Part shown: positions 526-7,339 of the stretch, in pieces
Layout of the letters: each line of letters opens with the position of its first letter
Numbering within the stretch: position 1 is the stretch's first letter
Assembly: GCF_057098645.1 (NCBI RefSeq)
Contig: NZ_CM169472.1
Strand: one strand, 5' to 3'
Length of the DNA stretch: 64,000 nucleotides
Program-made: the position numbers and the translations under genes
The notes under the pieces: generated by a model
The model's input: only the letters and a program-made list of their open reading frames with translations
What the model was told of the DNA's origin: nothing
Databases searched by the model: none

Positions 526-669
526 CCTGTTTACCTCTTTCTCAGGGAGTTTAGTCTCCAGGATTCCCGGGGCGGTTCAACCGGAAATCAAAACAACTGA
601 CGGCGAGGTGACTTGTGTTGGTCGCCAGAAAATGAAATTAGGCAGCAAACCACTTATTTGAGGTGAGAT

Positions 670-1140
670 ATGACAAAATCATGGAGCGTACCTTTTCCTG
701 AATCAGAAACTGAACATGATGGAATGCCTGTTTTCTGGAGATTCCAGGCGACAGTTGAAGAAGATGGGATAAAAATATTCGCACTTCAATATATAGCTTT
801 TCATCAGACAGAGCATTATGCATGGTTGGTTCCTGCGCATTGGATTGTTAATTTTAAACCAGCACCAAATCAGTGGTTACAGGAATGGAAACAAAGGAGA
901 AATAGATATGCAATTAAGAAAGTAGCAAAAAATGCAGAAAGATCTTTTGCATTCCCAACGAAGAAACTTGCCATTGAAAGTTTATTGCGCCGGAAGAAAT
1001 ACCATTTAATGAGAATCAAACAAGATTTGGCTGTTGTATCAACTCTTGTTGATGGTATGAAGAATATTGATACATCAACACCAGATATTGAATATAACTT
1101 TGGACACAACCAAGAAACAGAAAATTGGGTATTTTATTAG
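670..1140 (+). CDS. hypothetical AT-rich prophage accessory (moron) protein, 156 aa, no recognisable family
   Basis: Intact ORF with strong RBS GAGGTGA 6 nt upstream; low GC relative to flanks; sits between IS end and terminator/ea10 in the pL-like operon. Confidence 0.6.
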   Translation: MTKSWSVPFPESETEHDGMPVFWRFQATVEEDGIKIFALQYIAFHQTEHYAWLVPAHWIVNFKPAPNQWLQEWKQRRNRYAIKKVAKNAERSFAFPTKKLAIESLLRRKKYHLMRIKQDLAVVSTLVDGMKNIDTSTPDIEYNFGHNQETENWVFY

Positions 1141-1244
1141 TACGAATAAGCACTGTGTATTCATTCCAACGAGTGAATACACGGAGCAATGTCGCTCGTA
1201 ACTAAACAGGAGCCGACTTGTTCTGATTATTGGAAATCTTCTTT

Positions 1245-1270
1245 GCCCTCCAATGTGAGGGCGATTTTTT
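1245..1270 (+). terminator. rho-independent terminator-like hairpin (GCCCTC-caatgt-GAGGGC) followed by T-run, upstream of ea10
   Basis: 6-bp GC-rich stem plus TTTTTT seen directly in sequence. Confidence 0.55.
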
Positions 1271-1290
1271 ATCTGTGAGGATATGAACAG

Positions 1291-1659
1291 ATGTCAAACA
1301 TCAAAAAATACATCATTGATTACGACTGGAAAGCATCAATAGAAATTGAAATCGACCATGACGTAATGACAGAGGAAAAACTTCACCAGATTAATAATTT
1401 CTGGTCAGACTCTGAATACCGACTCAATAAACACGGCTCTGTATTAAATGCTGTATTAATCATGCTGGCGCAACATGCTCTGCTTATAGCAATTTCAAGC
1501 GACTTAAATGCATATGGTGTTGTGTGTGAGTTCGACTGGAATGATGGAAATGGTCAGGAAGGATGGCCTTCAATGGATGGTAGCGAAGGAATAAGAATTA
1601 CCGATATCGATACATCAGGAATATTTGATTCAGATGATATGACTATCAAGGCCGCCTGA
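1291..1659 (+). CDS. ea10: lambda Ea10-like protein (122 aa)
   Basis: Protein MSNIKKYIIDYDWKASIEIEIDHDVMTEEK... recognised as phage lambda Ea10; position upstream of cIII. Confidence 0.8.
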   Translation: MSNIKKYIIDYDWKASIEIEIDHDVMTEEKLHQINNFWSDSEYRLNKHGSVLNAVLIMLAQHALLIAISSDLNAYGVVCEFDWNDGNGQEGWPSMDGSEGIRITDIDTSGIFDSDDMTIKAA

Positions 1660-1731
1660 GTGCGGCTTTACCGCATACCAATAACGCTTCACTCGAGGCG
1701 TTTTTCGTTATGTATAAATAAGGAGCACACC

Positions 1732-1896
1732 ATGCAATATGCCATTGCAGGGTGGCCTGTTGCTGGCTGCCCTTCCGAATCTTTACTTGAACGAATCACC
1801 CGTAAATTACGTGACGGATGGAAACGCCTTATCGACATACTTAATCAGCCAGGAGTCCCAAAGAATGGATCAAACACTTATGGCTATCCAGACTAA
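1732..1896 (+). CDS. cIII: lambda CIII-like protein (54 aa), FtsH/HflB inhibitor
   Basis: [54 protein letters not shown] matches lambda CIII; internal start of listed ORF 1660-1896. Confidence 0.85.
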   Translation: MQYAIAGWPVAGCPSESLLERITRKLRDGWKRLIDILNQPGVPKNGSNTYGYPD

Positions 1897-2008
1897 ATTC
1901 ACTATCGCCACTTTTATTGGCGATGAAAAGATGTTTCGTGAAGCCGTCGACGCTTATAAAAAATGGATATTAATGCTGAAACTGAGATCAAGCAAAAGCA
2001 TTCACTAA
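1865..2008 (+). CDS. kil: lambda Kil-like protein (47 aa), host cell division inhibitor
   Basis: [47 protein letters not shown] matches lambda Kil; overlaps cIII end as in lambda. Confidence 0.8.
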
Positions 2009-2083
2009 CCCCATTTCCTGTTTTCCTAATCAGCCTGGCATTTCGCGGGCGATATTTTCACAGCCATTTTCAGGAGTTCAGCC

Positions 2084-2380
2084 ATGAACGCTTATTACAT
2101 TCAGGATCGTCTTGAGGCTCAGAGCTGGGCGCGTCACTACCAGCAGATCGCCCGTGAAGAGAAAGAGGCAGAACTGGCAGACGACATGGAAAAAGGCCTG
2201 CCCCAGCACCTGTTTGAATCGCTATGCATCGATCATTTGCAACGCCACGGGGCCAGCAAAAAAGCCATTACCCGTGCGTTTGATGACGATGTTGAGTTTC
2301 AGGAGCGCATGGCAGAACACATCCGGTACATGGTTGAAACCATTGCTCACCATCAGGTTGATATTGATTCAGAGGTATAA
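2084..2380 (+). CDS. gam: lambda Gam (short form, 98 aa), RecBCD inhibitor
   Basis: [60 protein letters not shown]... matches lambda GamS. Confidence 0.9.
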
Positions 2381-5570: not shown

Positions 5571-5571
5571 T

Positions 5572-6642
5572 ATGAGCGCTATAACCAAAGAACGTATCGA
5601 ATTATTCATTAAAAATCCGCTTGATAACGGACTTACCCGTGGCGAACAAATGGAACTTGCACGGATTGCACTGGCATCGTTGGAAGCAGATCCAGTTAAA
5701 CGAGTTAACTCAGATCAGATGCACCGAGTCTGCTTAGAAGCTAATCGCTATTTAGATAAATATGACGCGATGGCGAAAGAGGTAAATAAGTTGCTTGGAC
5801 GCATCGCCCCGCCAGCGCCAGTATTTAACGGCGAATACGGTGACGCATATCAGGGCGCTCGTGAAGACCTGTCCATCTGGAAACGGCGAGCGCTTGAAGC
5901 TGATGAGCACGTTCGGCGACTGGAGCAAATCAATGACCACATGGTGAAAGAGGCGCAGGGAGAATCACGCATGGGCGAGCCTGTAATACGTGAGCCAGCA
6001 CCGGTAGTGCCTGAAGAAGCAACTCCGGAAAACGTAGAAATGCTCTCTGGCTATGTTTCAACGTACAAATTAACCGATAGCGAGCGCGATATTGCTGCCG
6101 AAATATGGAGCGCCTGCCGCGCCGCCATGCTTCAGTCCGGAAACTTTCGGGAAAACAAGAATTCGTCAACCAATAATTTTCGGGAAATCGCGGAAACGTC
6201 AACCAACTATCCGGCAATTCCTAGTGAGGTGTTGTCCGCAATCCTGAAGGTTGCCAGGATTCGTGCCGATTTCGATGATTTTGACGGTGACAGGCGAGGT
6301 ATCGGTGATTGTCTGGATGAGGCTGAGCAAGAGCTTATCGTTACCATTAACAAATATGCCAGTCAGTTGGCAGCAGAACCTATAGCGCCTAATGACGTTC
6401 GAGAGCAGACAGCCATTCCACAAGTTCCGGTGACTCCGGATGGTTGGATAAGCTGTAGTGAGCGAATGCCGAATACCAAAACAGCCGTTCTTGTTGCCGT
6501 GGAGTTTGACAGGAAAGGTGACTGGCGAATGAAATGGGCTACTTACATCCCGGGGCATCCTGACGCTAATGATGGGTGGATAATTCCTGGTGCGTCGTGG
6601 AAAACGTCACACTGGATGCCGCTACCAGAGCCTCCACTTTGA
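5572..6642 (+). CDS. prophage protein with C-terminal DUF551-like domain (356 aa)
   Basis: ATG at 5572 with AGGAG RBS; C-terminal PDGWISCSERMP...W...HWMPLPEPP resembles DUF551 common in enterobacterial prophages; listed ORF start 5410 is an out-of-context upstream extension. Confidence 0.6.
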   Translation: MSAITKERIELFIKNPLDNGLTRGEQMELARIALASLEADPVKRVNSDQMHRVCLEANRYLDKYDAMAKEVNKLLGRIAPPAPVFNGEYGDAYQGAREDLSIWKRRALEADEHVRRLEQINDHMVKEAQGESRMGEPVIREPAPVVPEEATPENVEMLSGYVSTYKLTDSERDIAAEIWSACRAAMLQSGNFRENKNSSTNNFREIAETSTNYPAIPSEVLSAILKVARIRADFDDFDGDRRGIGDCLDEAEQELIVTINKYASQLAAEPIAPNDVREQTAIPQVPVTPDGWISCSERMPNTKTAVLVAVEFDRKGDWRMKWATYIPGHPDANDGWIIPGASWKTSHWMPLPEPPL

Positions 6643-6738
6643 AAGCGAAGCTTATACATATCTTTTACATCAGCAATCTATTGTTAATCTCCAATCAATG
6701 TTACGTTGTCATCTCACTCATGCTTTGGAGTTAGTGAT

Positions 6739-6918
6739 ATGTCTTGTCCAAAATGCGGTTCTGGAAATATTGCAAAAGAAAAAACAATGCGTGGATGGTC
6801 TGGTGATTATGTGTGCTGCGATTGCGGATACAACGACTCTAAAGACGCATTTGGAGAGCGTGGTAAAAACGAGTTTGTCAAAATTAATAAAGAACGCGAA
6901 GGCAACGAAAAAAGCTAA
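6739..6918 (+). CDS. small zinc-ribbon protein (59 aa; MSCPKCGSGN...CCDCGY)
   Basis: Two CxxC pairs; GGAG RBS 7 nt upstream of ATG at 6739. Confidence 0.55.
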   Translation: MSCPKCGSGNIAKEKTMRGWSGDYVCCDCGYNDSKDAFGERGKNEFVKINKEREGNEKS

Positions 6919-6982
6919 TTTATTATTCATATATGAAAACAATGTAACCAATATTCGAATTGAAGAACTGAAAGAACACCAA

Positions 6983-7004
6983 GCCGCCTGATGGCGGTTT
7001 TTTT
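6983..7004 (+). terminator. rho-independent terminator (GCCGCC-tgat-GGCGG + T7)
   Basis: Hairpin plus T-run seen in sequence upstream of torI. Confidence 0.6.
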
Positions 7005-7049
7005 ATTACCTGATTTGCAGGTTCGATTCCATATTCGGAGATAGCACTC

Positions 7050-7250
7050 ATGCAACACGAACTACAACCTGATTCACTGGTTGATTTGAAATTCATCATG
7101 GCCGATACTGGCTTCGGTAAAACCTTCATCTATGACCGGATTAAGTCCGGAGACCTGCCTAAAGCCAAAGTTATCCACGGGCGAGCAAGATGGTTATATC
7201 GTGACCATTGTGAATTCAAAAATAAGCTCTTAAGCCGCGCCAATGGGTAA
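7050..7250 (+). CDS. torI: TorI, prophage excisionase (recombination directionality factor) and TorR inhibitor, 66 aa
   Basis: MQHELQPDSLVDLKFIMADTGFGKTFIYDRIKSGDLPKAKVIHGRARWLYRDHCEFKNKLLSRANG matches K-12 TorI; adjacent to dsdC as in K-12. Confidence 0.9.
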   Translation: MQHELQPDSLVDLKFIMADTGFGKTFIYDRIKSGDLPKAKVIHGRARWLYRDHCEFKNKLLSRANG

Positions 7251-7323
7251 AATAGCGGGTAAAATATTTCTCACATCTAAAAAACATCATTCCAATCAAT
7301 CCCCTGCCGCTTCAAGTAGATGT

Positions 7324-7339
7324 CTGCAGGGGACACCAT
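7324..7339 (+). other. prophage attR core: copy of the 3' end of tRNA-Arg argW (CTGCAGGGGACACCAT)
   Basis: Sequence identical to argW 3' terminus located between torI and dsdC, as described for KplE1/CPS-53. Confidence 0.7.

Follow-up and report, generated by a model that had tools for sequence, protein, structure and literature searches.

We analyzed a stretch of 64,000 nucleotides (nt) of contig NZ_CM169472.1 (RefSeq assembly GCF_057098645.1), referred to below as the window. The listing and translation of its open reading frames (ORFs) revealed that positions 580-7339 are occupied by an unbroken series of genes, all placed on the + strand. This segment is, with high probability, the attR-proximal arm, containing the early-left operon of promoter pL, of a mosaic lambdoid prophage that resides in the 3′ end of argW and uses an integration and excision module (IntS/TorI) of the KplE1/HK620 type. 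The gene names used here are backed by protein identity to phage lambda or E. coli K-12, by PHROG matches and by matches to PDB structures.

The core of the arm carries the genes ea10, cIII, kil, gam, bet, exo, orf60a and orf63 and an orf61-like ORF, in the order known from lambda and read toward the excisionase gene. An earlier note on this DNA, made from the letters alone, had described such a block, and each of its elements was found. The first of these genes, ea10 (1291-1659; DUF2528; phrog_646), encodes a protein sharing 121 of 122 residues with lambda Ea10. The product of cIII (1732-1896; phrog_550), an inhibitor of FtsH, is identical to lambda CIII over all 54 residues, and the thermoregulator of the cIII mRNA (1719-1777; Rfam RF01804, Lambda_thermo, 88.5 bits) is intact. 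The kil gene (1865-2008; phrog_3924) follows, with 46 of 47 residues identical to lambda Kil.

The recombination genes proper come next. The gam gene (2084-2380) encodes the short, 98-amino-acid (aa) form of the RecBCD inhibitor (96/98 identical to short lambda Gam; full-length match to PDB 5mbv/2uuz, E 2.5e-61), and bet (2386-3171) encodes a single-stranded DNA annealing protein of 261 aa (260/261 identical to lambda Bet; PDB 7ujl, E 1.8e-122, and also 8tfu). The start of exo (3168-3848) overlaps the bet stop codon, which ends at 3171, and its product of 226 aa is the lambda exonuclease with the YqaJ fold (221/226 identical to lambda Exo; PDB 1avq/6m9k, full length for 1avq, E approximately 1e-154). 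The three ORFs are intact, and judged by their predicted products all three Red genes are present. Further downstream are orf60a (3839-4027; DUF1317; 57/60 residues identical to lambda), orf63 (4000-4191; DUF1382; 56/61) and the orf61-like ORF (4268-4483), of which merely 24 aa align with lambda orf61; the Pfam labels of these three ORFs were taken from identical genes in locus L008, one of the related prophage loci considered below.

The right end of the segment is formed by the gene of the recombination directionality factor (excisionase) TorI and by attR. The torI gene (7050-7250) specifies a protein identical to K-12 TorI over all 66 residues (full-length match to PDB 1z4h, E 6.6e-43). It is the last gene before attR and lies 73 nt upstream of the att core, a 16-nt duplication of the 3′ end of argW (7324-7339, + strand; CTGCAGGGGACACCAT). 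Positions 7324-7338 of this core correspond to nt 61-75 of argW, and position 7339 (T) to the base that follows argW in K-12. The core matches exactly the published 16-nt core of KplE1 (PMC2951348). It is present once in the window, and a scan with 14-mers of argW gave the att core and one other site only; no argW gene was found in the 64 kb. Beyond the core lies dsdC (7433-8374, - strand), followed by dsdX, dsdA, emrYK and evgAS, which confirms the right side of the KplE1 site. The K-12-like right junction proposed in the earlier note, with torI beside dsdC and a 16-nt copy of argW, thus proved exact.

Comparison with known phages revealed that the arm is composed of parts of different affinity. 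Positions 580-5570, from the 3′ end of the antiterminator gene N through the Ead/Ea22-like gene, match the Shiga toxin 2 (Stx2) phage 933W at 98.6% identity over 4991 nt, and at 5570 this homology stops. On sequence comparison, the closest relative is the early-left region of 933W (Sepvirinae), not lambda. Alignment with lambda, which the earlier note had proposed, showed that 1150-4848 (3.7 kb) are colinear with lambda 34045-30347 at 97.6% identity. The next segment, 5570-6640, which contains a DUF551 gene, matches neither 933W nor lambda. The last 700 bp (6640-7339), in turn, are 98.1% identical to the stretch hkaD-hkaC(TorI)-hkaB-attP core of HK620, and positions 6997-7600 match the K-12 element CPS-53 (KplE1) at its right end, plus dsdC, with 97.5% identity. 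Between the Eag-like gene and torI lies a boundary sequence of 60 bp (6944-7003, + strand), which includes a terminator hairpin at 6981-7000 and recurs with 100% identity in lambda (29106-29165) and in 933W. In the P22 record, the equivalent stretch carries an annotation of identity to lambda 29106-29165, and the P22 and Sf6 records label the counterpart of 6944-7003 as a terminator or boundary sequence. At this sequence lies the mosaic joint with the torI/attR recombination module.

The arm contains further ORFs. One of 156 aa (670-1140; phrog_1636, E 2.7e-112), which is conserved between N and ea10 among phages of the 933W type, gave no NCBIfam or PADLOC match. It is separated from ea10 by a terminator-like hairpin with a T-run (1243-1264, + strand), which is predicted to act as a tL-type terminator requiring antitermination by N; further terminator-like hairpins were found at 1683-1702, 4504-4522 and, as mentioned, 6981-7000. 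Downstream of the orf61-like ORF lie genes for a TraR/DksA-type C4 zinc-finger protein of 73 aa (4582-4803; phrog_54; TIGR02419 below the cut-off), an Ead/Ea22-like protein of 256 aa (4800-5570; PF13935; phrog_250), a DUF551 protein of 356 aa (5572-6642; PF04448), which represents an EaA-like accessory gene, and a small Eag-like zinc-ribbon protein of 59 aa (6739-6918) of the P22 eaG/HK620 hkaD type. The unannotated ORFs were screened for defence and cargo functions with NCBIfam and PADLOC, and only the sub-threshold TraR hit and one model match were obtained: residues 145-243 of the Ead/Ea22-like protein strongly match the PADLOC model DpdH (E 1.3e-36). No other dpd genes were found near this ORF, and the match is probably due to the inclusion of a prophage gene in the model, not to a Dpd defence system.

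The left edge of the arm is disrupted. The window opens with a partial insertion sequence (IS), IS629/IS1203 of the IS3 family (1-579, - strand; phrog_151 transposase), which is cut by the window start and contains orfA (199-525, - strand) and the ALIL frameshift pseudoknot (128-244, - strand; Rfam RF01497, 120.9 bits). This copy is 99.5% identical to an IS in strain FWSEC0003 (annotated as "IS3 family transposase") and 95.2% identical to one in O157:H7 strain F7349 ("IS3-like element IS1203 family transposase"). Its terminal inverted repeat (ending in GGCGGTTCA) stops at 579, and the first base beyond it, 580, corresponds to position 3001 of the 933W locus used for comparison (L006), in which the N coding sequence spans 2649-3032. 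Alignment to 933W showed that only the 3′-terminal 32 nt of the 933W-type N gene (580-611, + strand) remain next to the IS. Compared with the intact N of L008, the junction falls inside the Tyr codon 117 of 127, i.e. 11 codons ahead of the stop, and the predicted protein lacks its C-terminal 11 residues. All 15 ORFs downstream of IS629 are intact. The transposase genes of the IS run opposite to the pL operon, and the operon is physically severed from pL and nutL, either by the IS of 1.3 kb at the least or by a deletion.

The way in which the arm would operate in an intact phage can be proposed from homology with lambda and from the experimentally studied KplE1 module, i.e. from knowledge of the family. 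After loss of the repressor, N-modified RNA polymerase starting at pL would run rightwards through the terminator-like hairpins, and the transcript would cover the 156-aa ORF, ea10, cIII, kil, gam (RecBCD inhibitor), bet (annealing) and exo (5′-3′ exonuclease). Transcription would then continue through the small accessory genes, with torI as the last gene to be reached. With integration host factor (IHF) and with IntS, whose gene would lie at the opposite end of the prophage, beyond the window, TorI would recombine attL with attR at CTGCAGGGGACACCAT and so excise the phage. Expression of the operon would accordingly be expected to depend on pL and N, and intS and attL to lie upstream of the window. 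In the copy analyzed here, IS629 at codon 117 of N most likely abolishes or strongly reduces expression of the pL operon. The Red genes and torI are most likely intact but no longer properly induced, and the arm would then belong to a disabled or degenerating copy, presumably no longer inducible, of a phage that was mobile until recently. A native Red system, as claimed in the earlier note, is upheld in so far as gam, bet and exo are intact and not of laboratory origin; a working Red system is unproven, and its expression from pL is doubtful after the IS629 cut in N.

Near-identical arms were found in other genomes. Two draft assemblies contain the whole arm in an IS-free form, at 99.94% identity (4 mismatches in 6759 nt; GCA_040817235.1) and 99.89% identity (GCA_013058085.1), and in both an intact N lies behind a 933W-type stk/cI/cro/cII/O region; the contigs carrying these copies end before the late region. 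An exact match of the 356-aa DUF551 protein is recorded for 62 blocks of public assemblies. Loci L008, L010 and L012 (draft and metagenome contigs) carry the arm at 98.8-100% identity, followed by csc sucrose genes that replace dsdC and, wholly or for the most part, dsdX. Since the flanks of the arm consist of csc genes in some cases and of dsdC/dsdX in others, the same phage has been found beside both alleles of the argW-dsdA hotspot. The host backbones differ as well (that of L009 is about 98% identical to the backbone of the window), and the combination of near-identical arms with differing backbones indicates recent horizontal spread of the phage. The building blocks are common among 5426 complete RefSeq E. 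coli genomes: the gam-bet-exo block (at least 80% coverage) occurs in 3136 of them (58%), with up to 7 places per genome for any match to it, and the torI-attR-dsdC junction in 851. The exact arm is present in none of these genomes, in which the best torI-dsdC junction is 98.2% identical, and no record among them covers at least 80% of window positions 1-9000.

The backbone to the right of the prophage (7340-22000) is 100% identical to that of E. coli strains producing Shiga toxin (STEC), of serotype O145:H28, and, as the comparison with RM13514 (L003) showed, this identity starts at the att core. In these strains the KplE1 attB is empty, and they carry several lambdoid prophages. The prophage of the window is absent from the KplE1 attB of the O145:H28 strain RM13514 (NZ_CP006027.1, 3040000-3086000). 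As a separate observation, RM13514 has on the 5′ side of argW an Stx2a prophage whose tyrosine integrase is a different one and whose int gene is divergent from argW; this placement implies that "argW" covers two distinct insertion points.

Several points weigh against the interpretation of 580-7339 as the pL arm of an argW prophage served by IntS/TorI. The window opens inside IS629; pL, cI, the 5′ portion of N, attL, intS and argW would lie beyond it, and nothing in the DNA analyzed demonstrates a further part of the prophage. Neither the exact arm nor the IS629/N junction was found in a complete RefSeq E. coli genome, so that the full structure could not be read from one; the junction itself gave 0 matches among the 5426 genomes and 0 in an exact-match scan of the GTDB species-representative genomes. 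Finally, the annotation of HK620 includes a predicted promoter immediately upstream of hkaC. The torI gene may likewise have a promoter of its own, and excision might then not depend on pL.

The state of the prophage to the left of the IS admits more than one explanation. The junction at 579/580 may mark the end of a deletion next to the IS in which pL and the immunity region were lost, perhaps along with everything as far as argW/intS, leaving a dead remnant of 6.8 kb comparable to CPS-53 in K-12; we regard this as a serious possibility, with a chance somewhat below even. In strain 99E2750, N is interrupted 33 nt further upstream by an IS629 of the same orientation, and there the segment from stk to the 5′ part of N is gone relative to the related prophage of FWSEC0003, which demonstrates that such deletions do happen in this region. 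Copies of IS629 are moreover scattered among related prophages, including the same region in O157:H7 and other STEC prophages. Against this explanation, every ORF past the IS is intact; the arm differs from an IS-free copy at only 4 of 6759 nt, hence the event was recent, and a simple insertion accounts for the junction equally well. Given the example of 99E2750, both a simple insertion and the endpoint of an IS-adjacent deletion are realistic origins of the junction. It follows from the break at 579/580 and from the start of the window within the IS that neither inducibility nor the greater completeness suggested in the earlier note can be judged from this DNA: the prophage at the CPS-53 site is indeed a mosaic, with a lambda/933W pL operon and an HK620/KplE1 end, whereas "more complete" is not provable.

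At the other extreme, the element could be a functional inducible prophage, possibly Stx-converting, in which N is supplied in trans by another lambdoid prophage or the IS is overcome by read-through. The IS-free relatives with a complete 933W-type immunity and replication region, the several lambdoid prophages of the O145:H28 strains with the identical backbone and the intact ORFs of the arm are consistent with this view, which we nevertheless consider unlikely, as N is truncated and an IS with opposed transposase genes stands between the operon and pL; neither stx nor late genes are visible in the window (they would lie upstream of it). We attach practically no probability to a laboratory origin of the Red genes, as a defective lambda prophage or a recombineering cassette, despite the lambda order from ea10 to orf63 and the 92-100% identity of the encoded proteins. 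The approximately 90 differences from lambda over 3700 nt contrast with the essential identity that a construct would display, the flanks are of non-lambda type (the 933W-type N tail, the 156-aa ORF, the Ead/Ea22-like and DUF551 genes, and HK620-type torI/attR at argW), the same arm occurs at 99.9% identity in natural isolates, and no araC/ParaB, cI857 or antibiotic marker was found in the region. In view of the 97.6% (not 100%) identity to lambda and of these flanks, and with an att core that does match argW, this origin was rejected.

A second argW-like sequence was observed just upstream of torI: the 16-mer TTGCAGGTTCGATTCC at 7015-7030 equals nt 46-61 of argW. In the tRNA gene it runs on into the att core (with an overlap of one base), whereas in the arm 293 bp (7031-7323), torI among them, lie between the two. 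The 16-mer is kept in K-12 CPS-53, HK620 and OkiPb01711 and has one mismatch in RM9088; it overlaps the annotated "phage integration" promoter and the cII site of HK620. A constraint specific to the 16-mer could not be demonstrated, as conservation within the module extends over the entire interval between 7000 and torI. Two more speculative ideas may be mentioned here, which even taken together we hold to be quite improbable: either the TTGCAGGTTCGATTCC 16-mer is a relic of a longer tRNA-derived attP that was split by the directionality factor gene, or else a functional site (a target of a second integrase or of a regulator), or the IS629 in N has locked a recently mobile 933W-type argW phage, with the host keeping a silent but intact Red/TorI cassette.

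The arm is a real but ordinary element of an already known kind, near-identical copies of which are public. Many phages with argW as their insertion site, among them HK620, Sf6 and CUS-3, share a conserved IntS/TorI/att module (PMC3509656, PMC2951348), so that modular sharing of IntS/TorI among argW phages is already published, and argW is one of the main sites of Stx prophages (PMC8309913). The finding that the argW/dsdC hotspot of an O145:H28-like backbone holds a lambdoid arm, not the CPS-53 remnant of K-12, matters little beyond annotation. The IS629 in N probably inactivates induction of the prophage, which would matter only if stx or other cargo is encoded in the part not seen.

In comparison with known systems, K-12 CPS-53 occupies the same site at the 3′ end of argW beside dsdC, with the same core and an identical TorI, but only about 340 bp of prophage (6997-7339, torI plus attR) are shared, and K-12 has yfdP-yfdT where the window has the Red operon. 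The similarity to HK620 is likewise confined to the right end, and the early-left region of that phage is of the P22 type (abc2/ssb), unlike the Red operon described here. With lambda the arm has in common the order ea10-cIII-kil-gam-bet-exo-orf60a-orf63-orf61, together with the thermoregulator of cIII, but it lacks ral, sieB and N of lambda type, in place of which it has the 933W-type N tail and the 156-aa ORF; it also lacks the ea22, ea8.5, xis and int genes of lambda, and its site is argW, not the lambda attB. Phage 933W continues beyond the region of homology with accessory genes of its own and with an xis/int pair that targets wrbA. The arm of the window is without this pair and switches at 5570 to the DUF551 gene, the Eag-like gene and argW-type torI/attR. 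A complete arrangement is that of the Stx1a phage of RM9088, which reads yfdC-argW-intS-tail/head-stx1a-Q...cI...N-(156-aa ORF)-ea10-cIII-kil-gam-bet-exo...torI-dsdC. The P22-like prophage of OkiPb01711 has a corresponding cI...Red...torI-dsdC arm, with its argW/intS end lying outside the part examined; it carries a superinfection-exclusion gene instead of ea10 and a different gene upstream of the 156-aa ORF. Each shows about 97% identity to the window and has a different set of accessory genes between the TraR-like gene and torI; in both, as in the two draft genomes, N is free of IS629.

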